A stretch of 12,937 bases of DNA, taken from Candidatus Hodarchaeum mangrovi. GTDB lineage: Archaea; Asgardarchaeota; Heimdallarchaeia; Hodarchaeales; Hodarchaeaceae. This document shows, piece after piece, positions 1-12,937 of the stretch; the first letter of the stretch is position 1; every line of letters starts with the position of its first letter. The stretch lies in contig JAEOUE010000269.1 in the NCBI GenBank assembly GCA_016839515.1, positions 1-12,937 on the forward strand, read 5' to 3'. The position numbers and the translations under genes are program-made. A model generated the notes under the pieces. That model ran no database searches. It saw only the letters and a program-made list of their open reading frames with translations, and had not been told where the DNA came from.

Positions 1-1749
1 GCTAAACTTAATTTACTAGAAAATCTTCTATATCAGGGAAAAAGCCATGAACTATTAGATACTTATGAACAGCTAAAAGAAATTGGTGAAATAACACGAA
101 TAGCCTTAAATGAGACCCAAATTCTTGAAATCCTGATTTTATATGAGCTAGATGAGTTTCAAACAGGATTAGATCTCACTGAAAAGATATTCAATGTAAC
201 CAAGCAATCTGAAGACCAATTATTGGAATTGAATGTAATACTCTTAAAAATAAGGGCATTTTTAGAGCTTGGTGATTTAAAAACAAGTTATGCCATGATA
301 AAAAAAGCAGAAGAATTTCTTCACACTAATAAAGATAAATTGGTTGAACATTTAAGAAGAAAAGAATCTGACCTAGACTACTTAAAAGCTAGGGTTTTCC
401 TAAGAACAGCAGAGTATGATAGTGCGCTTGATTCAGCACAAAGAGTATTAATCAATAGGAGAGAAAACGAAAATCTATATGAAATTGCAGAATGTCTTAA
501 TTTATTAGGGATTATCAACATTTCAAAAGGTGATTATCAGAAAGCAAACGAATATTTAAAAGAATCATTAAAGAATTTTAGTAAATTTGATAATAAAAAG
601 GCAATTGCAAAGATATTCAATAATCTTGGGATGAATTACTGGAGAAGAGGTAATTTACTTAAGGCATTAGACTTTTTTCGAAAGAGTTTAACTTTGGCGA
701 AAGAATTGGAAAATTTTACCCAAATAGCAGTGTTACATTTAAACATTGGCCTTATTTATGGGTATCAAGGGGAATTGAATCTAGCATTAAAGAGTTATCA
801 GAAAAGTCTGGCGATAAGTAAAGAATTAGGTCAAAAAACTACTCTTTCAATGTGTTTAAATAATATTGGATTAATATTCCATGCAAGAGGGGATTTTACA
901 AATGCTTTACATTATTATCAAGATTCATTAGGCTTATTGCAAGAACTAGGTAAAAATCATGACATAGCAATTTGCTATAATAATATTGGAGAAATTTATT
1001 GCTCAATGGGGGAATATAAAAAAGCTTTAGATCAGATTAAGAAGAGTTTATCCTTATTTCAAGAGATCAGGGCTATTCCTGATATAACTCTTCCTTTATT
1101 CAATCTTGTAGAACTTTCACTTTATTCAGGATTTCCTCAAAAAGCCCAATCATATTTACAGCAACTTCAAGATATAGACAAGAAGGAAAAGCATGGAATA
1201 ATTAGTCAAAGGTATCGTTTAGCTCAGGCATTGATTTTGAAAAGTGGTAAAAGAGCTAAAATGAAGATAAGATCTTCTGAAATTCTTGAAGAACTAATGG
1301 AGGAAGAAATTATTGATCATTCACTCACTGTACGCGCAATGTTTGAGCTTTCAGAGTTGTTAATCGATGAATTAAGAGCGTATGGAGAAGAAGAAGTCTT
1401 TAATCAAGTCAAAAAGTTGATTCAAAGATTAGATAAGATAGCTAACGGACAAAAATCATACTCTTTAATGATTGATACATTAATTCTACAGGCAAAAATT
1501 TCAATGGTAGAAGGGGATTTAATTGTTTCACAGAAGTTCTTAGATCAAGCGGAACTAATTATAAAGAAAAAAAGGATTCATCAGTTGGTTAATAAACTCC
1601 AAGAGGAGAAAAAGCAATTAAAAAACCAATTTGAGAAATGGGAAAGCCTTATTCAGAGTAATGCACCGTTTGGCTTACGATTGGAACAAGCACAAGTCTC
1701 TGAATATATCAATGAAGTAAAAAAAGCAAAAAGAGAATGGGGAATATAA
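1..1749 (+). CDS. Large tetratricopeptide-repeat (TPR) protein, 5'-truncated by the window edge
   Basis: Frame 1 is open from base 1 (AKLNLLENLLYQGKSHELL...) into the tracked ORF, so TTG 223 is not the true start. Tandem ~40-aa TPR units (CLNLLGII...GDYQKA; FNNLGMNY...GNLLKA; CLNNIGLIF...GDFTNA; CYNNIGEIY...GEYKKA) followed by a helical C-terminal region. Stop TAA at 1747-1749. Confidence 0.92.
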   Translation, partial: AKLNLLENLLYQGKSHELLDTYEQLKEIGEITRIALNETQILEILILYELDEFQTGLDLTEKIFNVTKQSEDQLLELNVILLKIRAFLELGDLKTSYAMIKKAEEFLHTNKDKLVEHLRRKESDLDYLKARVFLRTAEYDSALDSAQRVLINRRENENLYEIAECLNLLGIINISKGDYQKANEYLKESLKNFSKFDNKKAIAKIFNNLGMNYWRRGNLLKALDFFRKSLTLAKELENFTQIAVLHLNIGLIYGYQGELNLALKSYQKSLAISKELGQKTTLSMCLNNIGLIFHARGDFTNALHYYQDSLGLLQELGKNHDIAICYNNIGEIYCSMGEYKKALDQIKKSLSLFQEIRAIPDITLPLFNLVELSLYSGFPQKAQSYLQQLQDIDKKEKHGIISQRYRLAQALILKSGKRAKMKIRSSEILEELMEEEIIDHSLTVRAMFELSELLIDELRAYGEEEVFNQVKKLIQRLDKIANGQKSYSLMIDTLILQAKISMVEGDLIVSQKFLDQAELIIKKKRIHQLVNKLQEEKKQLKNQFEKWESLIQSNAPFGLRLEQAQVSEYINEVKKAKREWGI

Positions 1750-1804
1750 TCATAATATTGCCTATTGGCTTTATACAGAGAATATTAAGATTAATGAATT
1801 GAAT

Positions 1805-2437
1805 TCATTCTTTTTCTGAATTCACCAAGGAAGGAAATGGACTAGCCAAAATGAAGGTAAAATAGCTTTCTGGACCTATTTCCTCAAGTGGTTGCAAATT
1901 GAGTTCATGGTTTTCTTGAAATTGATAGAGAAACTGATTGAACTCTTTTTGAAAGAGCTCGCCTAATTCCTTATTCATTATTCCAATAGACATTAGTTCC
2001 TTCCCAGTTAGAATATTTTGGATAAATTTGTCGATTTCTCGGCTTTTAAAATTAAATATATTTTCAAGATTTCGTTGAACTGCTAGTAATACTATTTTTA
2101 AAAACTCTAAATCCATCTCTACTAATGCTTTTTCTACAACTGCACCTAAATCTCTAAATTTACGCATATGTTGGCTTGGGCTTAGTTTCCAATAATTTAT
2201 TGTAAAATTACGAATTGATTCTGTTTTTGAGATAAAAACTATTCCTGATCTCTCGAAGGTTCTCAAATTTCGTGTAATAGTCGATTGATCTTTGTTTGTT
2301 AAATTAGCAAGTTGTTTTACAGTTAATTCTTTATGAATTATTAAATTCCAAGCTATTAATGCACGAGTTTCAGAGCTAAACAGCTTTTTAAAAAAAGTTC
2401 GACTGTTTACTCCTTCCTCTATGGTTTTATTTGCCAT
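1805..2437 (-). CDS. Winged helix-turn-helix transcriptional regulator (ArsR/MarR-like N-terminal domain plus C-terminal domain)
   Basis: ETRALIAWNLI...LTVKQLANLTNKDQSTITRNLRTFERSGIV is a typical HTH/wing pattern. SD-like AAGGAG upstream of the ATG on the minus strand. Divergent from the transporter. Confidence 0.85.
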   Translation of the reverse strand: MANKTIEEGVNSRTFFKKLFSSETRALIAWNLIIHKELTVKQLANLTNKDQSTITRNLRTFERSGIVFISKTESIRNFTINYWKLSPSQHMRKFRDLGAVVEKALVEMDLEFLKIVLLAVQRNLENIFNFKSREIDKFIQNILTGKELMSIGIMNKELGELFQKEFNQFLYQFQENHELNLQPLEEIGPESYFTFILASPFPSLVNSEKE

Positions 2438-2485
2438 TTTGAATCGGTCTCCTTGAACATACTTCTAATTGACACAATCATTACA

Positions 2486-2497
2486 TTTATATATAAA
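2486..2497. promoter_or_regulatory. Palindromic archaeal-type TATA box (TTTATATATAAA), possibly bidirectional
   Basis: Perfect 12-bp palindrome in the divergent intergenic region, 48 nt upstream of the regulator ATG and immediately before the repeated boxes. Confidence 0.55.
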
Positions 2498-2501
2498 CAT
2501 T

Positions 2502-2551
2502 TGCATTGTGCATACAGATGTAATGTGCAATACATACGAGTGCATTGTGCG
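2502..2551. promoter_or_regulatory. Three TGCA-N3-TGCA-type boxes, putative operator sites of the adjacent wHTH regulator
   Basis: TGCATTGTGCA (2502-2512), TGTAATGTGCA (2519-2529) and TGCATTGTGCG (2541-2551): dyad-symmetric repeats directly beside the TATA box. Confidence 0.6.
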
Positions 2552-2584
2552 TTTTAATCATGTATTTACATCGGAGATAAAGAA

Positions 2585-2755
2585 ATGAAAGGAAGAAAAA
2601 TATTAGCAATAATCGAAGAAAATACAAAGTATTTTGACCTTTGTTACTGGAAAGAACGCCGAAAAAACCCTGATTCACCCGATTTAAGAAATTGGACTAC
2701 AAAAAAACGAAGAAACTTTCAGAAACTTTGGTATGGTGAGAAAATTGACTCCTGA
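2585..2755 (+). CDS. Unannotated 56-aa basic small protein or leader peptide upstream of the MFS gene
   Basis: GGAG (2573-2576) lies 8 nt before ATG 2585. Translation: MKGRKILAIIEENTKYFDLCYWKERRKNPDSPDLRNWTTKKRRNFQKLWYGEKIDS*. It fills the intergenic gap and overlaps the MFS start by 23 nt. Confidence 0.5.
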   Translation: MKGRKILAIIEENTKYFDLCYWKERRKNPDSPDLRNWTTKKRRNFQKLWYGEKIDS

Positions 2756-4010
2756 AAACAAGAGTTATCTAATGGGTTATCTAGTCATCTGGAGTGGGCA
2801 ATTGATATCGTTATTTGGATCAGGACTGGTTCAATTTGCCATTATCTGGTGGTTAACCACAACCACTGGAAGCTCTTTTATTCTTGCCCTAGCAAGCTTT
2901 GCAGGTTTAATTCCATTGGTTATCTTTACTCCTATTTCAGGGGTACTTGCTGACCGTTGGAAAAGAAAACATTTGATTTTATCAACTGATTTCCTTCAGG
3001 CATTATTATCGTTTGGATTAATCTTTCTTTTTTACTTAAAATTGGAAAGTTTTATCCTAATCATCGTTATATTATTTCTTCGCGGTATGTTTCAAGCAAT
3101 TCAATTACCAGCATCCATTGCTTTGGTTCCACAAATGGTACCCAAAAACAAAATTAGTAGAGTCAATGGATTGAACTCTATCCTGAATAATATAATTTAT
3201 ATGGTTACTCCAGTTGCAGGAGCAATATTTCTTGAAATCGCTTCAATTGAGTACATATTATGGATTGATGTCTTTACTTTCTTAATCGCTGTAGGAACAT
3301 TAGTAGTCGTCTTCGTACCTTCTGTGTCGAAACAAGAAAAAAATAGCGTCCAAAACTACCCTAAAACATCTTTTAAATCTGAATTCATTGAAGGATTAAC
3401 CTACCTGCGCGTAAATGGATTTATGACCCTTATACTTGGTGGAATGTTCGCGAATATTTTGATCAATCCTCTGTTTTCATTATTGCCTTATTTTATCAAA
3501 CATATCCATGAAGGAGGAGCATTAGATCTTGCTCTCATATTAGGAGTCTTTCAAATGGGCAGCCTAGTTGGAGCACTGTTCGTAATGGTGAAAAACTTTC
3601 AACCACAGTTTAAAAATATAGTGTCTGCAGTTTTTGTTTCTTTTATAGGATTATTTTTACTGGGAATCTCTCCTCCAGGATTCTTCTCTATAATAGTTCT
3701 TGGAAGTCTAATTGCTGGTTTAGCATTAGGAACCGTTGATATCATGATAATTAGTATTCTACAAATAAATATACCCGGTGAGTTACAAGGAAGAGTTTTT
3801 TCTATTTTATTCATGCTAGTCAAATCCATTCTTCCAATTGCTGTTCTTATCACAGGTGGTCTTGGAGAAGTATTCGGATTATCGGTGATTTACATAATCA
3901 ATCCTCTACTTGGATTTGGTTTGGTTATATATCTAATATTTGGATCACGAATCTCTAAATTTGATCAAAATATGGTTCAAAGAAGAATGATGATTTCTAC
4001 ATCTAATTGA
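2733..4010 (+). CDS. Major facilitator superfamily transporter (MefA/MFS_3-like drug:H+ antiporter type)
   Basis: About 12 hydrophobic segments; MFS motif A GVLADRWKRK; N-terminal WSGQLISLFGSGLVQFAIIWWL and C-terminal QINIPGELQGRVFS, both typical of the MefA-like subfamily. Confidence 0.92.
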   Translation: MVRKLTPENKSYLMGYLVIWSGQLISLFGSGLVQFAIIWWLTTTTGSSFILALASFAGLIPLVIFTPISGVLADRWKRKHLILSTDFLQALLSFGLIFLFYLKLESFILIIVILFLRGMFQAIQLPASIALVPQMVPKNKISRVNGLNSILNNIIYMVTPVAGAIFLEIASIEYILWIDVFTFLIAVGTLVVVFVPSVSKQEKNSVQNYPKTSFKSEFIEGLTYLRVNGFMTLILGGMFANILINPLFSLLPYFIKHIHEGGALDLALILGVFQMGSLVGALFVMVKNFQPQFKNIVSAVFVSFIGLFLLGISPPGFFSIIVLGSLIAGLALGTVDIMIISILQINIPGELQGRVFSILFMLVKSILPIAVLITGGLGEVFGLSVIYIINPLLGFGLVIYLIFGSRISKFDQNMVQRRMMISTSN

Positions 4011-4101
4011 AAAGCATAATGAACTAATATGAATATAAAAATCAAGATAGGAAGAGGAAACAAAAGATCGTAAAATGATCGAATGGAGGAGGTGATAACA
4101 C

Positions 4102-4117
4102 TTTTTTTATTTTTTTT
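4102..4117 (+). terminator. Oligo-T tract, probable archaeal-type intrinsic terminator of the MFS transcript
   Basis: TTTTTTTATTTTTTTT about 90 nt downstream of the MFS stop, in a convergent intergenic region. Confidence 0.4.
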
Positions 4118-4265
4118 ACTCTAAATCCGAATGCTAATATACGATTTTAACTCTTATTATTGGTTTGTATCATAGGATATGTTTTTCTCAATCAAAACAA
4201 CCTTAAATGATAGAATACAGTATCAATAAAAATATCTATATCCATTAGATTGAGACAACTTAAAT

Positions 4266-4736
4266 CTAATTCTCGTTCATCGCTACCTCAAGGTTTGGAG
4301 ATCCATCAGGTAATAGAATCCCTTTCTTTATAACTTGCATTAATACACCGTTGGCAGACTTGGGATGGAAGAAAACTGAAAATATACCTTCAGTAGGGGT
4401 CATACCTGCTTGTGGAATTCCAGCCTTTTCAAAACGTTCAATTGTATACTTAATATCAGTAGATTCTAATGCTAGATGAAAAAGCCCCTCACCTTTTTTC
4501 TCAAGATACCGCTTAGTGGGGCCATCTGTTAAAGGAGTTACAAGTTCAATAAAGCAATTGTTTCCCAAAGGAATAAAGGCATAATCAATTTCTTCATCTT
4601 CACCTTTCCCGGTAATATAGCTTTGTCTATTAATTTTAATAGTTTCAGGATTCATTTCAAGAGCCTGACAGTATTTTAAAACCGCTTTCTTCAGATCTGT
4701 GACGACTATTCCAATGTGATGAAAATTTGTTTTCAT
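4266..4736 (-). CDS. VOC/glyoxalase superfamily protein, methylmalonyl-CoA epimerase-like
   Basis: HHIGIVV, IELVTP, YLEKKGEGLFHLAL and FFHPKSANGVL match the MMCE-family motif order. The last motif reads GVLMQV instead of GVLxEL. Confidence 0.8.
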   Translation of the reverse strand: MKTNFHHIGIVVTDLKKAVLKYCQALEMNPETIKINRQSYITGKGEDEEIDYAFIPLGNNCFIELVTPLTDGPTKRYLEKKGEGLFHLALESTDIKYTIERFEKAGIPQAGMTPTEGIFSVFFHPKSANGVLMQVIKKGILLPDGSPNLEVAMNEN

Positions 4737-4870
4737 GATCTAACATCTCTAATTAGAGTGGCTATCTAGAAAACTCCAGAGTTCTCTCACCAATTATGGT
4801 TTATTAAATATATTTACTAGATGATATTACTCAGTTATTTAACTAAATTCTTTGAAAAATCCTGAACAAA

Positions 4871-5105
4871 TTAACGTTTCCCGTTGCTAATAATTGTAAA
4901 ACCTTCTTTTTCAAGCAAAGTTTTATGCTATTTTAGTCCTCCTGAAAATTTCTCATTAAATAAACCTTCTGGTTTTAAAATTCACCAATAAAAAATTAAT
5001 AAATCTTTTCCTTGTTTTGCGGCCTCCCCTACTGCATTTGTAGAAGTCATTATATATTCAGTAAGAGAGGAAAATTTGATTCTTACTTCTGGTTGAAATG
5101 AATTA
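4871..5105 (-). pseudogene. Probable decayed C-terminal fragment of a class I SAM-dependent methyltransferase
   Basis: One reading frame with two internal stops: ...IMTSTNAVGEAAKQGKDLLIFYW*ILKPEGLFNEKFSGGLK*HKTLLEKEGFTIISNGKR* (TGA 4984-4982, TAG 4930-4928, TAA 4873-4871). It resembles the 'RxLKPGG...LLExAGF' pattern of methyltransferases. Confidence 0.35.
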
Positions 5106-5108
5106 AAA

Positions 5109-5753
5109 TTAGATTTTAGTTTGTTTGAATCTTGAGAATAAAGCTAAAACTTTTTCTTTTTCACTGTAAACAACGATTAGCTCTAAAAAAATAATTAGTG
5201 AAAAATATAGAAAATTGTAGGTGTTGAAAAACAAAACTGGTGGGATAAATAGAAAAAGAATACTATTAGTTAAAAAATTATCATAGGTTTTATTTTTCGT
5301 AATAAACTTCTTTACCAGTTGCATTACAGTCATTAATCCTATATAAAGAAGAAAAAAACTTTGCCACGATATAAAAAAAAGTATTCCTCCTAAGGGGGCT
5401 CCTCCTTTCCCACCGTGCCATTTATGCTGTTCAATCCATATCCAGAATGAGTTTATATGACCAAGGAGAATACCAACACTAGCTATTGCAATATGTCCTT
5501 CAATATTCTGTAATTGGATAATAATTCTAAAAACATAATCAATTAATCCTAGGGCAAAAATTGCCTTCCCAATGTCAAATAATCCTACAATTATTAAAGC
5601 AGGCCATCCTAATAATCTTCCAGCGTTTGTTGCCCCTAATTGTCCTGTTCCCTCTTCTGTTAGATTAATCCCACGAATTTTTGCCCAATAATAGGAAATA
5701 AAAACTGAGCCGCAGAAATATCCTAAAAGACCACTAAGGAATACCTCAAAAAT
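5109..5753 (-). CDS. plsY: PlsY-like glycerol-3-phosphate acyltransferase (acyl-phosphate dependent), ~214 aa, start codon non-canonical or unresolved
   Basis: Manual translation shows the frame of the tracked 74-aa ORF is open from 5768 to 5109: IFEVFLSGLLGYFCGSVFISYYWAKIRGINLTEEGTGQLGATNAGRLLGWPALIIVGLFDIGKA...GILLGHINSFW...WHGGKGGAPLGG... It contains the PlsY signatures GYxxGS, GxGxxGATNxxR, DxxK, GH and GGKG, plus multiple TM helices. The first ATG/GTG/TTG is at 5333; ATT 5753 is used as a nominal start. Confidence 0.85.
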   Translation of the reverse strand: MFEVFLSGLLGYFCGSVFISYYWAKIRGINLTEEGTGQLGATNAGRLLGWPALIIVGLFDIGKAIFALGLIDYVFRIIIQLQNIEGHIAIASVGILLGHINSFWIWIEQHKWHGGKGGAPLGGILFFISWQSFFLLYIGLMTVMQLVKKFITKNKTYDNFLTNSILFLFIPPVLFFNTYNFLYFSLIIFLELIVVYSEKEKVLALFSRFKQTKI

Positions 5754-6633
5754 TAATTTTTCTTCCCCCTATATCCTTATTTGGCAAAGCGAAATAAGCA
5801 ATTAATAATAAACCAGGGCCAGTATTTGCTGCAATCATTGGATCAGCATCGCCTTCAATAATTTGATATTGAGGAAAATATTTATTTATTTCTTGCTTCA
5901 TTAGTTTTGAATCTTCCTTGCATAAGAAATCACTGATACCAACAATATTCGGTTTTATATTTGTATCTATACTTTTAGATAACAAATTCACCATTATATC
6001 TAACGCTTTTTCTCTTTTTCGGGGCCTGTCAACTAAAAATATATCTGAATTTCTCATAATTAGAATTGGCTTGATTGAAAGTGCATCAGCCATCATAGTT
6101 GCTATTTTTATACTTATTCGACCTGTCTTATTAACATATTTTAACGAATCTAATGTCCCTATAACTTGAATCTGCTGACAATACTTTTGAACCTGTGATA
6201 ATAATTCTGATTCATCACCAATTTGTTGTGCAGAAATGGCCGTCGCAATTACTACCAACCCTAAACCTAATGTTGCTACACCAGTCTCAAATAATTTGAT
6301 TCGAGACGGGTCTTTCATTCTTTGAATAGCTGTGTTTGCTGAATTGATTGCACTAGTTTGTTTCCTAGGAGGATGTAAACTGATAATGAAATCAACATCA
6401 TCAATTAAACTACTATAAGCATTATAATATTCTCCTGGTGGGGGAGCACCAGTTCTGAAAGTCTTATTTTTCTCTGTTATGATTTTACTTAAATCTTTAG
6501 TAAAAAAATTCTCGCCACTTTTATAGCGTTCCCCATCTATGTATATATCTCCTGGAACAACAATAATTGAATATTTTTTTTTCAATTCTATTGGTAATTC
6601 GCCCATTGAATCAGTAACAATACCCACTTTCAA
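5746..6633 (-). CDS. degV: DegV-family (FakB-like) lipid/fatty-acid-binding protein
   Basis: MKVGIVTDS, LKYVNKTGRI, IKPIL and C-terminal TGPG; 295 aa. The TTG start overlaps the upstream stop (TTGA, 6633-6630), with SD GGGAGG 8 nt upstream. Confidence 0.9.
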   Translation of the reverse strand: MKVGIVTDSMGELPIELKKKYSIIVVPGDIYIDGERYKSGENFFTKDLSKIITEKNKTFRTGAPPPGEYYNAYSSLIDDVDFIISLHPPRKQTSAINSANTAIQRMKDPSRIKLFETGVATLGLGLVVIATAISAQQIGDESELLSQVQKYCQQIQVIGTLDSLKYVNKTGRISIKIATMMADALSIKPILIMRNSDIFLVDRPRKREKALDIMVNLLSKSIDTNIKPNIVGISDFLCKEDSKLMKQEINKYFPQYQIIEGDADPMIAANTGPGLLLIAYFALPNKDIGGRKINF

Positions 6634-7664
6634 TTGGATATCCTCCCTATTCGCTGATTCTTTTGTTTAAGAAATTCCATATTCTGTTGCTCTAAAGAAT
6701 GGAAAGTAATAATTTTTACTAAGTTTGTAAGCGAATTCAACTTTGCTATTACTTCTGTGGGATTATTACAATGAATATGAATTTTAACTTTTGAGTCATT
6801 TTCTGCTTTTGTAATGATTAAAGTATCACCTAAATCATCTAATTGGTTACTTAGCAAGCTTAATGACCAATCTAATCCTGGTATTAATGCAATTATCTCA
6901 TATTTCTTCTCAAATTCTTTGAAATCTATTTCAGGTTTAATAAAGTAATTCAATTCATCAGATATAGGGATAATCTCTAATCCAACTTGATATATTTCTC
7001 TTATCTTTATTAAAAACCCCTCAAGAATAACAACTAGCCCCATTGCACCGGAATCAACTACCCCAGCCTTTTTGGCTTCTTTAAGAACATAGTGAGTATC
7101 TTTTAGAGCAATTTTGGCATCTTCAAAAATAATATGTAATAATTCATAGGGATTGGTTACTAATTTCTTCCAAACTTCCGCTGATTCCCCAATCGAACGT
7201 GCCACAGATAATATTGTTCCTTCTCTTGGTCTGATTACAGCATTATAAGCAAATTCTGCCGCTAATTTTAATCCTTCTACTAAAACTTCGATATCAAGAC
7301 TTTTTTGATTCTTCCAAGCTACTTCTAATCCTCTAAAATACTCAGATAAAATACTTCCTGAACTTCCAGCACACCCTCTGAATGCTCCTTGGGATACTAG
7401 TGACATAATATTCCCACAATGGTTATCATGGGGAACTTTTGATAGTTCGTTAATAATTGACTTAAACGTTTGTACTAAATTAGTACCTGTATCGCCATCA
7501 GGGACAGGAAAAACATTGATAGAATTCAACAAATCGTTATATTTTTTAAGGCATTCAAAAGAACTAAATAGCATTAAATAGAGATCTAATCCCGAAATAA
7601 GCTCTGGGTAGGTTTTATCATCTTCAAGAGCGAATTTATAAAAATTCATACTTGAAACACCCAT
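6630..7664 (-). CDS. fakA: DAK2-domain protein, fatty acid kinase subunit A (FakA)-like, lacking the C-terminal domain
   Basis: LNSINVFPVPDGDTGTNL, PREGTILSV, GVVDSGAMG and KIHIHxxxP are FakA/YloV-family motifs. It is 344 aa versus ~550 aa for canonical FakA, and is translationally coupled to degV. Confidence 0.85.
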   Translation of the reverse strand: MGVSSMNFYKFALEDDKTYPELISGLDLYLMLFSSFECLKKYNDLLNSINVFPVPDGDTGTNLVQTFKSIINELSKVPHDNHCGNIMSLVSQGAFRGCAGSSGSILSEYFRGLEVAWKNQKSLDIEVLVEGLKLAAEFAYNAVIRPREGTILSVARSIGESAEVWKKLVTNPYELLHIIFEDAKIALKDTHYVLKEAKKAGVVDSGAMGLVVILEGFLIKIREIYQVGLEIIPISDELNYFIKPEIDFKEFEKKYEIIALIPGLDWSLSLLSNQLDDLGDTLIITKAENDSKVKIHIHCNNPTEVIAKLNSLTNLVKIITFHSLEQQNMEFLKQKNQRIGRISN

Positions 7665-7681
7665 AGATTCTTCATTAATTA

Positions 7682-7689
7682 TTTATAAA
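7682..7689 (-). promoter_or_regulatory. Candidate TATA box (TTTATAAA) for the fakA-degV-plsY operon
   Basis: Lies 17 nt upstream of the first ATG of fakA. The surrounding DNA is very AT-rich, so specificity is low. Confidence 0.3.
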
Positions 7690-7826
7690 TTCACTTTAAA
7701 TAGAATCTAAATTTAAACCTTAAATATTTATCTTAAAAGAAACTATTAGCTGAAATAAAAATCTTAATTACAATGAAAGAGCTAAATTGAATAATTCATT
7801 AATAAAATATGCTGAAATTTAAAAGT

Positions 7827-8606
7827 TTAGCTCAACTTTCTTTCTACATCATTGCAGAAAGAAAGAAGTAGCTTATTAAATGCTTCAGATTCCGATTTAT
7901 GAAAACTATGGTCCCCTTCAAAAGGAATTATTTTTGTTTTAGGGGGTAAATGTTGTTTTAGTAAATCATAATTTTTTGAAGGATTTATGCTGTCCCTTAA
8001 TCCATAAGTTAATAAAATGGGAATATTTAATTTTTGAAAATTTTTAAGAAATTTAATAATCCTTTCATTATTTAATATTAAATTTACCGATGAAAAAGCT
8101 TTAATTATTCTTTTGAATACAATCCAAGCTGCCTTTCCAAACGAACTGTTCTTTTTTACTATCCTTTTAGATTTCGGGAGCTTTGGGATTGATGGAATAA
8201 ATGAATTTAGAACGCTTAATGGACTAACAAGAATTATTCCAAGAACATCTTGTGGAAACATTGAGGCATATGTTAGTGCAATTGCTCCCCCAATGGAATA
8301 ACCAACAAAAATAAAAGGTTTCTTTAACTTCATATGGCTTTTTAGTAAAAACCTGAGATTTTTAAGATCGTAGATAGGACTTTTTTTCTTCTGAATATCT
8401 TTTACAGTTTTTGTTGTGAAACTAAAAATATTTGGAGCTATTACATGATATTTTGATGTAATATTTGAATTATTTAATTGCTGTTCCCAATGTTGATGAG
8501 AATTGCCTGAAAATCCATGTAGTAACACTAATGGTCGACCTTCACCATTTTGATGAAGTGAACTTGAAAAATCATCTCTGCCAGATTGAATCAAATTTAA
8601 AGACAA
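7827..8606 (-). CDS. Alpha/beta-fold hydrolase (esterase/lipase-like)
   Basis: Oxyanion motif LVLLHGF, nucleophile elbow GYSIGG (GxSxG), catalytic Asp in YGLRDSI and His in EGDHSF. The exact TTG start is uncertain. Confidence 0.88.
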   Translation of the reverse strand: MSLNLIQSGRDDFSSSLHQNGEGRPLVLLHGFSGNSHQHWEQQLNNSNITSKYHVIAPNIFSFTTKTVKDIQKKKSPIYDLKNLRFLLKSHMKLKKPFIFVGYSIGGAIALTYASMFPQDVLGIILVSPLSVLNSFIPSIPKLPKSKRIVKKNSSFGKAAWIVFKRIIKAFSSVNLILNNERIIKFLKNFQKLNIPILLTYGLRDSINPSKNYDLLKQHLPPKTKIIPFEGDHSFHKSESEAFNKLLLSFCNDVERKLS

Positions 8607-9125
8607 TCTCCCTTTTTAATTAATTACGATCATGATGAAATGGTGATATGTATTTTATATAAACATAATTGGATAATTTTTTCGTAATATCATATCAAAT
8701 TATCACGTATTCTAGCTCTTTTTCTTTCTTTTGCCTTTTTCAGAGGAGATTGTCCAATTAGCAGACTATTTGAGCTCAGCAGAATTAAAATCATGATAAT
8801 ACCTTTTTTTAAAAAATAATAAAGTTATATTTTGGATTTTTTTTAGGAAAAACTATCAAAACAATATACCATCGAATTTGTTATGATTTCGATTATTTTA
8901 TTCAAGTTTTTTTATATTCATATCATCTCAATCAGAATTGGGAAGAAACTAAAATCTAAACATTAAATTCGTTTATTATCATTGAAAAAGATCTATCTTA
9001 TATTAATTTACTATAATTTTTTATGGGTGAATCAGAATGATAATTTGTGGTAATTGGATTTAATTAGAAATATCAAAAACCAAGCATAATGAATTATTTA
9101 ATAAGATAAACTAGGGGAAAAGAAA

Positions 9126-9845
9126 ATGAATGGACAATTTAGACAAAACATATCAGAACTCAAAAATTATTTGGATTCAGGTCAACTTGATAGAAAAAAG
9201 CATTTGATAAAATTCCAAAGTTCTTTAAGAGTCGCAAGAAAGAGTAATCAGGATGATGAAGACTTAAGAATTTTAGGCAAGATAGATTCTTTCTTTTTTG
9301 AGAAATGGCGTGTACCAAAAACTAAACAAATAATTGGGATTCCTGTACTTATTATAGCTGTTTTATTGGCTCAAATATTATATTTTAGTCTAATAGTAAG
9401 TAAACCATTATTTTTACTTGGAATAATTTTCTATTTCGTTTTTAGTTTTGCAAACTATACCCTTTCACATGTTATTTATCACTGGATTTTTGGTATAATC
9501 CTAGGGATACAATTTAAATCAATTTTTATCTTTAAATCCTCATTTAGAAAAGCAAGATATCCTTTTAATCTGATTGGGAATTTATTACCAACTTTTGGTA
9601 TAAAATATGATACTTATTCTTTTCTTAAGGCCAAAAAATGGAAACGGACTATGATGTTTATCTCTGCGCCCCTATTAACCTGGATTTGGTTTTTTATTAA
9701 CTATATATACCTTTTAGTACAATACCCCTCTGAAATATCCTTATTATTTACAATTGGAGGTATATTAATAGTTTTTTTTGTAATTAGTCAATTTTTAAGC
9801 TATTATGGAAAAGGAGACATCTGGAAAGCTACTCTCGATTATTAA
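9126..9845 (+). CDS. Integral membrane protein with a degenerate zinc-metalloprotease-like signature (HxxxH...AP...GD)
   Basis: Soluble N-terminus followed by 4-5 hydrophobic segments; SHVIYH, FISAPLL and GKGDIW in the order seen in M50/DUF3267-like membrane zincins. The CDS itself is well supported; the family call is tentative. Confidence 0.65.
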   Translation: MNGQFRQNISELKNYLDSGQLDRKKHLIKFQSSLRVARKSNQDDEDLRILGKIDSFFFEKWRVPKTKQIIGIPVLIIAVLLAQILYFSLIVSKPLFLLGIIFYFVFSFANYTLSHVIYHWIFGIILGIQFKSIFIFKSSFRKARYPFNLIGNLLPTFGIKYDTYSFLKAKKWKRTMMFISAPLLTWIWFFINYIYLLVQYPSEISLLFTIGGILIVFFVISQFLSYYGKGDIWKATLDY

Positions 9846-9958
9846 TAAATTAATTAAAATTCTTAAAATTCCAAATTAGAATTAATCTACGAAATATTTG
9901 CATATTTCTTTAAAAGTAAAGTCAAATTAATCACCAATTAAATAAAAAGGGCTTAATT

Positions 9959-10621
9959 ATGGTTTTAAATTTAATATATCCTATATTAGTCTTGACTGGA
10001 ATTCTTTTAGTAGTTTGGACCCTAATTTCGTATTTTACAACCAGAGCCATAGAAGAACCAAAATATATAGTGCTGAAAAAATACCCTAATTTTGAAATAC
10101 GTGAATATCTACCATATATTATTGCTTATACTGATATTTTAAGCTCTTTTAATGAATCAGCTAATTCAGGGTTTCGAATACTGGCTAATTATATTTTTGG
10201 AAGAAATAGCAGATCTCAGAAAATTAAGATGACTGCACCAGTTATTCAGGGAAAAATAGAAATTACTACAGAAAAGATTGCAATGACTAAACCAGTTATT
10301 CAAGAAGAGAGAGGAAACTCCTATCGAATAGCCTTCATCATGCCTTTAAAATATACATTAGAGACCTTACCTAAACCAGAAGACCCAAGAGTAAAGATTA
10401 CAGAAGTAGATAAGGAAATTAGAGCAGTATATACTTTTAAAGGATGGGCAACAGAGAAAAGAGTAAAAGCAAAGCAGGAAACCTTTATTGGATTACTTGA
10501 GGAAAGTTGTCTCCCCTTTAAAAATATTAAATTAGCTCAATATGATCCTCCATATACTCCCCCCTATATGCGGAAAAATGAATTACATGCTACTCTAGAT
10601 ACCGACTATACCTCATATTAA
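9959..10621 (+). CDS. SOUL-family heme-binding protein with N-terminal membrane anchor or signal
   Basis: IEEPKY, FEIREY, GFRILANYIFGRN, KIxMTAPV, FIMP, LPKP and YDPPYTPPYMRKNE are SOUL motifs. Residues ~3-25 are hydrophobic. Confidence 0.92.
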   Translation: MVLNLIYPILVLTGILLVVWTLISYFTTRAIEEPKYIVLKKYPNFEIREYLPYIIAYTDILSSFNESANSGFRILANYIFGRNSRSQKIKMTAPVIQGKIEITTEKIAMTKPVIQEERGNSYRIAFIMPLKYTLETLPKPEDPRVKITEVDKEIRAVYTFKGWATEKRVKAKQETFIGLLEESCLPFKNIKLAQYDPPYTPPYMRKNELHATLDTDYTSY

Positions 10622-10722
10622 GTTTAGAACTTAATCCCATTAACTACTTAATCTTTTCTTGAATTAAATACCTAAGAGTGAAATAATCAAGAATTAAAAC
10701 CGTTATTTCTTGGTAAAATTCC

Positions 10723-11844
10723 TCAAATTTCTGTAAAACTCTTTACAGTATTTAAATCAAGTCTTTTAATTACCTCAATAAGTAGTGAAACTGCTTTTTC
10801 CACATCTCCAAGATCTAAAATACCATTATGGCTGTGGATATGCCTTGTAGGTATTCCAAGAACAAGTGAAGGACAACCAGATCCTGATAAATGTATTCTT
10901 CCTGCATCGGTTCCACCACCCATTACTACACTATCTTGATATTCTATATTAAATTCTTTAGCAATATCAATGACATAATGACGTAATCGAGGATTAGGAA
11001 TCATTGAAGCGTCTCCAGCTAAAATTGAGACACCCTTGGACATCTCTGAAGGAGCTTTTAACTTCGGGACATCAGGAACATCACCAGATATATCAACTTC
11101 AAGAGCAAAACCAATTTCTGGTTGAATCATTTGAGCTGAAGTTTGAGCCCCTCGAAGGCCTATTTCTTCTTGCACAGTTGCTACTCCGAACAATTGGTTG
11201 GGATGGGCAATATTTTCTTCTTTAATTTTTCTTAACACTTCTGCAGCAATAAATAGTCCAATACGATCATCAAATGCTTTACCAATAAGAAGACTCACTT
11301 CTTTCCTATTCTCTTTTTCATCCTTTTTTTCAATCTGGGTTCTTTTAATCATCTCAAATTTAGAATCAGGAACAATTGGATCTCCTATTTGAATCCCAAG
11401 CTCCTTCACTTCTTTATCACTTTTACATCCTACATCAATAAACATTTTGTCTTTAGTAAGAACTTTTTTTTGTTCTTCAGGATCTAATACATGAGGAGGT
11501 GGGGCTACAATAATTCCACGATGTAAATCTCCCGTTTTAGTCTTTATGATAACTCTTTGGGTTAAAAGAGACTGATCCCACCATCCGCCTACCTGATGAA
11601 AGCTGATATATCCTTTCTGATTAATACCAACAACAATAAAGCCGATTTCATCGACATGGCCAGCAAGCATGATTTTAGGACCCTTATCACCAACTTTGAA
11701 GATTAAAGAACCCGTTTTGTCATTAAGTACTTCATCAGAAAAAGTTGAGACATATTCCTTTACGATTCTGGTTACTTCCAGTTCATGTCCTGAAGGACCA
11801 AACGCATTACTCATTCTTTCTAAAAACTCAAGATTCAGATTCAT
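10723..11844 (-). CDS. M42-family metallo-aminopeptidase (TET/glutamyl aminopeptidase-like)
   Basis: GPSGHE, AGHVDEIG, KAFDDR, QEEIGLRGA, GGTDAG and RHIHS provide the dinuclear metal ligands. SD GAGGAG 5 nt upstream of the ATG. Confidence 0.95.
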   Translation of the reverse strand: MNLNLEFLERMSNAFGPSGHELEVTRIVKEYVSTFSDEVLNDKTGSLIFKVGDKGPKIMLAGHVDEIGFIVVGINQKGYISFHQVGGWWDQSLLTQRVIIKTKTGDLHRGIIVAPPPHVLDPEEQKKVLTKDKMFIDVGCKSDKEVKELGIQIGDPIVPDSKFEMIKRTQIEKKDEKENRKEVSLLIGKAFDDRIGLFIAAEVLRKIKEENIAHPNQLFGVATVQEEIGLRGAQTSAQMIQPEIGFALEVDISGDVPDVPKLKAPSEMSKGVSILAGDASMIPNPRLRHYVIDIAKEFNIEYQDSVVMGGGTDAGRIHLSGSGCPSLVLGIPTRHIHSHNGILDLGDVEKAVSLLIEVIKRLDLNTVKSFTEI

Positions 11845-12028
11845 ACGATCTCCTCAATAAAAATTGCTATTTTTTTAAAAAAACTGTTATAAAAAAGATT
11901 AGATATCTATTTTGTAACTGATTCATATCATAATCTAAATATTTTTTGTGAATATACCAACATATCAATCATGAATTCTCAATATATAAATGACAAAAAT
12001 TTCGTAGTTTAATCTTTTTGAATCAATT

Positions 12029-12937
12029 TTATTTAATAATTAAGCGTTTTCTAATCAATATAAGACCGATAGAAAGAATTACTAAAACAGAAAATTCAAT
12101 TTTTGTCGTGTGAGTAGTGTAATCATCTTCAATCTGAAAGATCAATAATCCTATATTTCTATCTGCAACAAATAAGATATCATCACGTAGAAAGATATCA
12201 TTCGTCCCACAATTATCATAAAGATACCGTATTTGTTCGACAGGATTCGTTATTGTGCTGATATTAATTATTTGAATTCCACCTGAAATATCAGAAATAT
12301 AAGCGAGTTCCTCAATGATATGAATTGAATAGCAGTTACTACTACTGTTAACTATTTCCGATACCTTGGTTATTTGAGAAAGATTACTAATATCTAGTAT
12401 TTGTATACCATAATGATAATAACAAGCAAATGCATAATTATCAACAACCTCAAAAGTGATGAGGTGAATATTAGGATTTGCAGAATCAATATATGTATCT
12501 AAAAGATTCAGGTCAGTCCTATTACTGATATCATAAACAAGGAATCCTTTCTGGGCACACGCAGCATATAACCTATTTCCAACTCGCTGTAAGTCTGGAA
12601 TATCATCTTCAGTTAAAATTGTTGCAACATGAACTGGATTGGTCAGATCACTGATATTGGTGATAGTAATACTTTCTTGAGCACTAATATGACCATTTCC
12701 TGTATAGATAACGTCATCCACTAACTGAATATCCCAAGAATAGTCATGAGGGAATTCAGTAAGCACTGTAGGATTCTCGGGTTCAGTACAATTGATAATC
12801 CAAATTCCGCCATACCCATTCCCAATATACGCAATATTATTTTCCAAGATGAATTGATGAGCATAACCATTACCAGCTTGTGGTAGAAGAGCAACTTGGG
12901 TTGGATTAGAGAGATCACTAATATCAAAAATTCTAAA
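12029..12937 (-). CDS. LVIVD-repeat (beta-propeller-like) cell-surface protein with C-terminal membrane anchor; N-terminus lies outside the window
   Basis: The frame is open to base 12937 (FRIFDISDLSNPTQVALL...). Repeats AYIGNGYGGIWIINCTEPENP, AFACYYHYGIQILDISNLSQI and AYISDISGGIQIINISTITNP. Ends with a Thr-rich linker, TM helix and basic tail RKRLIIK. Confidence 0.88.
   Translation of the reverse strand, partial: FRIFDISDLSNPTQVALLPQAGNGYAHQFILENNIAYIGNGYGGIWIINCTEPENPTVLTEFPHDYSWDIQLVDDVIYTGNGHISAQESITITNISDLTNPVHVATILTEDDIPDLQRVGNRLYAACAQKGFLVYDISNRTDLNLLDTYIDSANPNIHLITFEVVDNYAFACYYHYGIQILDISNLSQITKVSEIVNSSSNCYSIHIIEELAYISDISGGIQIINISTITNPVEQIRYLYDNCGTNDIFLRDDILFVADRNIGLLIFQIEDDYTTHTTKIEFSVLVILSIGLILIRKRLIIK

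Follow-up and report, generated by a model that had tools for sequence, protein, structure and literature searches.

An AUU codon inside the end of degV as the probable start of plsY in the Asgard archaeon Candidatus Hodarchaeum mangrovi

The window analysed here is a stretch of 12,937 nucleotides (nt) of Candidatus Hodarchaeum mangrovi (contig JAEOUE010000269.1 of assembly GCA_016839515.1, positions 1 to 12,937). Its genome is called G000 and its relatives carry other G labels; coordinates are window positions, and the genes discussed lie on the minus strand. The window contains an overlapping trio, fakA-degV-plsY, and plsY has no ATG, GTG or TTG at its beginning. Comparison with related sequences makes it likely that plsY is a separate gene, the last of the trio, starting at ATT 5753-5751 (coding sequence as proposed, 5109..5753; 214 codons plus the stop codon 5111-5109). 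For the locus itself, the outcome is chiefly a correction: recoding and a DegV-PlsY fusion are in all likelihood absent, and plsY is in all likelihood intact over its 214 codons. An earlier, model-made reading of the letters (the first-pass annotation) had offered three options for this junction: a +1 frameshift at the end of degV, initiation at ATT 5753 with AGGGGG as its Shine-Dalgarno (SD) sequence, or a start at TTA 5756 as a mutated or mis-sequenced TTG.

degV (5746..6633), encoding a fakB-type fatty-acid-binding protein, starts at TTG 6633-6631 and stops at TGA 5748-5746. As the first-pass annotation had described, its 3' end reads AAT TTT TGA and the plsY frame is +1 relative to it. The minus strand over 5772-5745 is ATAGGGGGAAGAAAAATTAATTTTTGAG, and a longer reading around the junction is AAGGATATAGGGGGAAGAAAAATTAATTTTTGAGGTATTCCTT; the annotation had given the former letters correctly under the range 5745-5771, which omits the first A, and all that it said about the letters themselves proved correct. 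The stop-to-stop frame of plsY opens after a TAG (5769..5771) that bars any start farther 5' and extends over 219 codons to 5109. Reading of this frame also bore out that its first ATG, GTG or TTG is ATG 5333, which comes after the two main motifs, GTGQLGATN and GGKGG. The frame thus contains 145 codons without a canonical start, with the TAG 6 codons before ATT and the canonical codon 139 after it. Because this canonical-start-free lead is the second longest among 2717 stop-to-stop open reading frames (ORFs) of the genome with 150 codons or more, it exceeds chance; only 9 of the 2717 have leads of at least 100 codons. Between the TAG and the first membrane helix, ATT (5751..5753) is the sole codon one base from ATG. 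It opens an 8-nt overlap of the plsY start and the degV stop, ATTTTTGA (5746..5753), which also holds the TTT-TGA site, and an SD-like GGGGG run (5765..5769) lies within the degV tail at -16..-12 from ATT.

Of the 21 other genomes in the genus, 9 contain a match to PlsY, at 10 loci in total, or 11 with that of G000. plsY is therefore an accessory gene in the genus, and degV is directly upstream of it at all 10 loci. Together with two metagenome loci, one of which has junction letters identical to those of G003 and may not be independent, 12 other junctions were compared. The codon aligned to ATT 5753-5751 was ATG in 9 of the 10 genus loci and in both metagenome loci (11/12), in the context ATG TTT GAA or ATG ATT GAA. 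The tenth genus locus, that of the nearest relative G010, has ATT at the start codon, reads ATT TTT GAA like the window, and contains the same ATTTTTGA. The degV TGA occupies +5..+7 of the plsY start codon in all 11 genus loci, so that the overlap is 8 nt throughout, and the codon before this TGA in the ATG relatives is GTT, GAT or GCT. Among the features that the first-pass annotation had proposed to look for in orthologous junctions, an NTG at 5753 was found, namely ATG in 11/12; a conserved TTT-TGA was not, nor were an NTG at 5756 in the 10 genus relatives or a long domain in front of PlsY among the best 150 homologues. In G010, GGAGG stands at the same columns as the GGGGG of the window (-16..-12). 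The place of the TAG 5771-5769 is taken in G010 by an in-frame TTG, 6 codons upstream of ATT, which is itself part of the SD (TTGGAGG) and has no SD of its own; ATT would be the likelier start in G010 too.

The plsY frame matched PF02660 with 79.5 bits against a cut-off of 24.1, over residues 15-205 and profile positions 1-159 of 164, and its product is predicted to be a member of this acyl-phosphate:glycerol-phosphate acyltransferase family. When a profile of the 11 orthologues was compared with the solved Aquifex PlsY (5xj5), E was 3.6e-10 and profile position 6 fell on chain residue 6; the N-terminus read from ATT corresponds residue for residue to the Aquifex protein. GTGQLGA.N and GGKGG were invariant in 11/11 sequences and aligned with GSGNVGATN and GGKG of 5xj5. 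In total, 60 alignment columns, motif residues included, were invariant across the 11 PlsY sequences, and G000 keeps all of them. The PlsY domain begins no more than 24 residues from the N-terminus in nearly all of the best 150 of 4578 homologues. AlphaFold2, run on the 11-row alignment, gave a model too poor to use (mean pLDDT 57.8). Two of the relatives differ in other respects: G014 has two degV-plsY pairs, from both PlsY subclades (L005 and L025), and the PlsY of G003 and of one G014 locus (G014b) have a C-terminal extension of ~45 residues, for a total of 265 amino acids (aa).

We used a position profile to examine SD use in G000, since no 16S rRNA 3' end was available. A GGAG/GAGG core was present at -16..-4 of 400 of 1638 first ATGs (24%) versus 639 of 13332 internal ATGs (4.8%), and SD sites are thus in real use in this genome. 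The cores begin at -16..-11, 159 of them at -12 and 34 at -16. The GGGGG of plsY, an imperfect motif at -16..-12, falls within this band at its far edge, and would pair like GGAGG with one G-U. The second option of the first-pass annotation, AGGGGG as the SD of ATT 5753, is the one that the data support, through the position of the run, the homology of ATT with ATG and the other near-cognate starts of the genome.

Near-cognate codons also occupy SD-led start positions elsewhere in the genome. We scanned for positions that have a correctly spaced SD, are preceded by an in-frame stop within 20 codons and are followed by 120 or more open codons, with no further canonical codon between that upstream stop and 15 codons downstream. 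The scan returned 476 positions, 362 of them ATG, TTG or GTG and 114 non-canonical. Among the latter, 37 were near-cognate (ATT 18, ATC 7, ATA 6, CTG 3, and ACG 3) versus 12.6 expected from codon usage (P 8.5e-10), and they fell in 30 ORFs. With five control SD spacings, the near-cognate share was only 13-18 of 108-116. These results lead us to favour, with less assurance than for plsY itself, a lineage-wide relaxation of start choice, in which approximately one in 20 SD-led genes of this Asgard genus would start at AUU, AUA, AUC, CUG or ACG, some of them conserved across species, as with CUG in uvrB (16 of 19 loci) and AUA in Fe-ADH (9 of 20).

In thirteen further genes, a Pfam domain starts before any ATG, GTG or TTG, and a near-cognate codon stands behind GGAG/GAGG at the usual spacing. 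This codon is ATT in Fe-ADH (C311:12571, minus), PhzF (C209:25340, minus), a GT2 transferase (C265:8342), GNAT (C198:1955, minus), and PIN_9 (C153:45096, minus); ATC in TrmB (C162:813, minus), NurA (C150:69975, minus), and a GHL10 hydrolase (C15:3398, minus); ATA in an FMN reductase (C342:1472, minus), an ABC ATPase (C157:33503, minus), and DUF134 (C92:10060, minus); and CTG in uvrB (C54:8397) and a phosphoesterase (metallophosphoesterase; C54:30750, minus). Inositol_P, GCHY-1, an aminotransferase and an HTH protein are ambiguous candidates, in which a canonical codon precedes the domain. Comparison with orthologues confirms the near-cognate starts of the phosphoesterase, uvrB and Fe-ADH. The phosphoesterase has CTG in G000 versus GTG or TTG in 20/20 relatives. 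Of the 19 aligned uvrB loci, 16 have CTG at the start, 2 have ATG and 1 has GTG; 8 genomes have no canonical codon left because of an in-frame stop, while in 8 others an upstream TTG inside the SD could serve as the start. For Fe-ADH, which has ATT in G000, the 19 relatives had ATA (9), CTG (4), TTG (3) or ATG (2), and the start was unassigned in G010. For the FMN reductase (ATA), no orthologue in the genus reached E<=1e-25; the sole match was a paralogue within G000, which has TTG at the corresponding position. G007 was left out of the uvrB comparison because its N-terminus did not align; there, the match (L085, G007:C6:55448-55900) begins at query residue 50 within an open frame of 1217 aa, versus ~680 elsewhere, and may reflect an insertion or fusion.

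In the PlsY tree, G000 and G010 are sisters (support 100/99) with terminal branches of 0.63 and 0.41. Their plsY genes differ by a pS of 0.79, which is saturated, and a pN of 0.23, and the chance of 214 codons staying open at the given base composition is 6e-8. Because synonymous divergence is saturated at this pN, with the frame open and the invariant columns kept, plsY is, by these sequence measures, a gene maintained under purifying selection with ATT and long without ATG. A single G-to-T change in the common ancestor of the two sisters would be the simplest account of ATG becoming ATT.

The G000 assembly comprises 348 contigs totalling 4.0 Mb, with a completeness of 91%, a contamination of 6% and a GC content of 32.9%; its genes include those for ribosomal protein S28e and for an actin (437 bits). 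The genetic code of G000 appears to be standard, since table 11 yields long ORFs in the window, with complete Pfam domains. The first-pass annotation had raised an assembly error at 5745-5771. We compared the junction letters with Logan contigs, rather than raw reads, of runs from other studies. Three runs from three other studies span 5745-5771 without a differing letter (X3 covers 5360-5973, X6 5300-6042, and X14 5649-5958), and the closest differences to the junction are at 5730 and 5887; in a fourth run, X18, the site lies outside the coverage. The strain in X14, roughly 1% divergent, retains the frame and ATT. Because the contigs of three independent studies agree with the window, the junction is no assembly error.

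In the explanation that we favour, the AUU at 5753-5751 would be read by initiator Met-tRNA as a near-cognate of AUG, with the SD-like GGGGG, 11 nt upstream inside the degV tail, serving this start. ATT is listed as a start codon in NCBI table 11. In excerpts of a ribosome profiling study of Haloferax, ~30% of putative alternative start sites were near-cognates, which its authors did not pursue (PMC7261190). Since the degV stop follows the start at a distance of 5 nt and the overlap is invariant, ribosomes finishing degV probably restart at AUUUUUGA (termination-reinitiation); de novo SD-led initiation is equally possible. The G-to-T change in the ancestor of G000 and G010, which would have turned the ancestral ATG into ATT, is likely to have lowered the output of PlsY relative to DegV. 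RNA folding of 5705-5795 gave z +0.97, with no structure of note.

Several observations weigh against initiation at this AUU. The run before plsY is GGGGG and not GGAGG, and it sits at the outer limit of the usual spacing, where 34 cores begin versus 159 at -12. Among the RNA runs listed, none contained 5300-6300. 16S rRNA was sought in G000, G009, G006 and G010 and not found, and the anti-SD was thus not read directly. A looser test of near-cognate codons that precede the first canonical start by 15 codons or more, later replaced by the stricter scan with spacing controls, showed no SD enrichment before ATT (17/301) or ATA (12/210) versus 5.7% internally; ATC (12/103) and CTG (4/36) had a small-number excess versus about 5.5-6% internally. 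The 0.63 branch of G000 is the longest in the PlsY tree, which would fit some relaxed constraint. TTT-TGA arose in both ATT genomes through the same G-to-T change, leaving room for some +1 slippage. From the literature, reviews give only AUG, GUG and UUG as archaeal starts, at least in passages of PMC7531240, and aIF1 discriminates against non-AUG codons in Sulfolobus and Pyrococcus, according to part of PMC6237735. In excerpts of a ribosome profiling study of Haloferax, ~30% of putative alternative start sites were near-cognates, which its authors did not pursue (PMC7261190).

Loss of the start codon might have left plsY silent or decaying, with the open frame as a remnant. That plsY is accessory (9 of 21 other genus genomes), that the G000 branch is the longest, and that public data contain a 156-aa protein in which a DegV N-terminus is joined to a PlsY C-terminus, so that the pair can decay, would all suit such a history. 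We nevertheless consider it unlikely, because ATT is common to G010 across saturated synonymous divergence, yet pN is 0.23, because the frames are open (chance 6e-8) with all 60 invariant columns kept, and because the ~1% divergent strain in X14 keeps both frame and ATT.

Still less probable, in our assessment, is the first option, a programmed +1 frameshift in which tRNA-Phe on UUU 5751-5749 slips to 5750-5748 before UGA, making a DegV-PlsY fusion the main or only source of PlsY. The UUU-UGA-G of both G000 and G010 permits perfect re-pairing, with UUU GAG in the +1 frame, and a G-rich run lies upstream of the slip site. However, TTT-TGA occurs only in these two genomes; at 11 of the 12 other junctions plsY is a separate gene with its own ATG, and GTT, GAT or GCT stands before the TGA. 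Because these relatives have an ATG and no shift site, the ancestral state is two proteins, and the option is not supported. In the programmed +1 frameshift of prfB (RF2), at CUU-UGA, the SD-like run is ~3 nt from the slip codon. Here 13 nt separate the end of the G-run (5765) from the first base of TTT (5751), so the first-pass annotation was right to place AGGGGG farther upstream than in prfB. The RNA folding likewise offers no stimulatory structure.

The architecture of PlsY homologues also bears on the frameshift. PlsY and the Fak system are linked in function, and two relatives of the same order but another family contain a natural fusion of the two: in G022 (L011) and G023 (L012), PlsY and FakA form, in this order, one ORF of 585 or 602 aa, followed by degV with an ATGA overlap. 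The layout was confirmed with Pfam in G022 only (L011:358-2115, minus; PF02660 at 14-202, Dak2 at 283-460 and FakA_M at 501-574 of 585 aa). Two public representatives of 585 and 587 aa, among the best 150 of 4578 profile hits, share it. This fusion joins PlsY by its C-terminus, which speaks against a DegV joined to its N-terminus. Among the best 150 of 4578 homologues, none has a long domain before PlsY, the largest N-terminal extension being 83 residues, and 3/3 proteins longer than 400 aa carry PlsY N-terminally (residues 2-207). A separate search for longer PlsY homologues scored nothing, a weak result since it also missed the known 585-aa fusions. Finally, PlsY has seven membrane helices, a cytoplasmic active site and long cytoplasmic loops, and was expressed with a C-terminal GFP tag, as stated in part of PMC5700162. 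Given these properties, its N-terminus would face outward, an arrangement that a cytoplasmic DegV before helix 1 would violate.

Since nothing closes the plsY frame after 5768, some other non-canonical codon in its short lead might serve as the start, for example TTA 5756 or GTA 5744. We give this reading even less credence than the frameshift, because ATT alone is one base from ATG between the TAG and helix 1 and is homologous to ATG. The codon at TTA 5756 varies among TTA, TAA and TCA in the 10 genus relatives, is a stop in three of them and is never NTG, and a decayed or mis-sequenced TTG at this position, the third option, was rejected on the same ground. An error of sequencing or assembly that conceals an ordinary ATG or TTG, conceivable in a fragmented metagenome-assembled genome of 348 contigs and 6% contamination, can practically be dismissed, because the contigs of three other studies agree at every base of 5745-5771 and the independent genome G010 has the same overlap.

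The first gene of the trio, the fakA-like gene (6630..7664, minus), matched Dak2 (PF02734, 1.3e-31) and the FakA middle domain (PF21645, 1.8e-08). The fakA/degV junction is ATAGGGAGGATATCCAATTG, as the first-pass annotation had given it, and the degV TTG 6633-6631 overlaps the fakA stop by 4 nt as TTGA. degV matched PF02645 (1.5e-41) over residues 2-281 of 295. In G021 (L004), TTA stands where G016 and G001 have the degV TTG, and there is no canonical start in the 10 upstream codons shown. An alpha/beta hydrolase gene (7827..8606, minus; PF00561, 1.4e-17) lies 162 nt upstream of fakA and may belong to the same unit. Hydrolase, fakA, degV and plsY are consecutive on one strand, an arrangement that resembles a module for free fatty acid activation and glycerol phosphate esterification.

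Two short public proteins resemble parts of this locus. P0013 (71 aa) closely resembles, on visual comparison, the final third of the PlsY of the window and begins at the equivalent of the second internal Met; it may be a truncated gene call from a close relative that also lacks a canonical start. In P0123 (156 aa), ~50 N-terminal DegV residues are joined directly to the C-terminal third of a G014b-type PlsY, probably through a deletion or a chimeric assembly rather than as a functional fusion.

Gene finders restricted to ATG, GTG and TTG cut plsY to a C-terminal fragment, and such truncated calls affect any census of bacterial-type lipid genes among Asgard archaea. Whether PlsY is present or absent enters the debate on the lipid divide; as far as excerpts of PMC6431249 show, archaeal PlsY was found only in metagenome bins, Asgard bins included, and its role in membranes was doubted. 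plsY offers one orthologue-anchored case within a putative pattern of AUU, AUA, AUC and CUG starts behind SD sites in Asgard genomes. Our literature search, with supplements outside its scope, found no paper on non-canonical starts in Asgard archaea. If confirmed, the case would bear on the strictness with which the aIF1/aIF2 machinery chooses start codons and on annotation pipelines. If the wider relaxation is true, near-cognate initiation, a hallmark of eukaryotic translation, would already be routine in the archaea related to eukaryotes, and genes of these Asgard genomes would at present be called systematically too short.

The closest parallels to the proposed start are infC and pcnB of E. 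coli, which start at AUU; in the portion of bioRxiv 10.1101/063800 consulted, AUA, AUC, AUU and CUG give 1-2% of the AUG level. Like plsY, both genes have AUU behind an SD as their sole start, have canonical starts in relatives, and would be expected to have a low yield. plsY differs from them in its Asgard host with aIF1/aIF1A/aIF2-type initiation and in its position inside an 8-nt overlap, and no autoregulation of the infC kind is evident, since the aIF1 gene of G000 has an ATG start. For gene pairs that overlap, termination-reinitiation was shown in Haloferax volcanii and E. coli, according to part of Huber et al. 2019 (PMC6728339). Those pairs are, like degV-plsY, co-directed, with a stop/start overlap and the SD inside the upstream gene. 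They overlap by 1 or 4 nt (ATGA, TGATG) and have canonical starts, whereas the degV-plsY overlap is 8 nt with AUU, and its coupling is a prediction.

With prfB, the degV-plsY site shares a U-rich P-site codon that can re-pair at +1 before UGA and a G-rich run upstream. Unlike prfB, it has a 13-nt spacing, is absent from 11/12 related junctions and has a downstream frame with its own start in relatives; moreover, feedback of the RF2 type would be impossible on this pair. The acyl-phosphate made by FakA/B is the substrate of PlsY in a pathway established in bacteria, as reported in sections of PMC13400652, and in Firmicutes the FakA/FakB (DegV) kinase feeds PlsY (Parsons 2014, as cited in parts of PMC13400652 and PMC5700162). 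The window encodes the same three protein families together. It differs from the Firmicutes system in its archaeal host and in a divergent PlsY, with GTGQLGATN versus the bacterial GSGN.GATN (5xj5), whose activity is predicted. The PlsY-FakA fusion, finally, does join PlsY physically to the Fak system, as the tethering idea of the first-pass annotation had supposed, but its partner is FakA at the C-terminus of PlsY, and it is an ordinary single ORF that involves no recoding.

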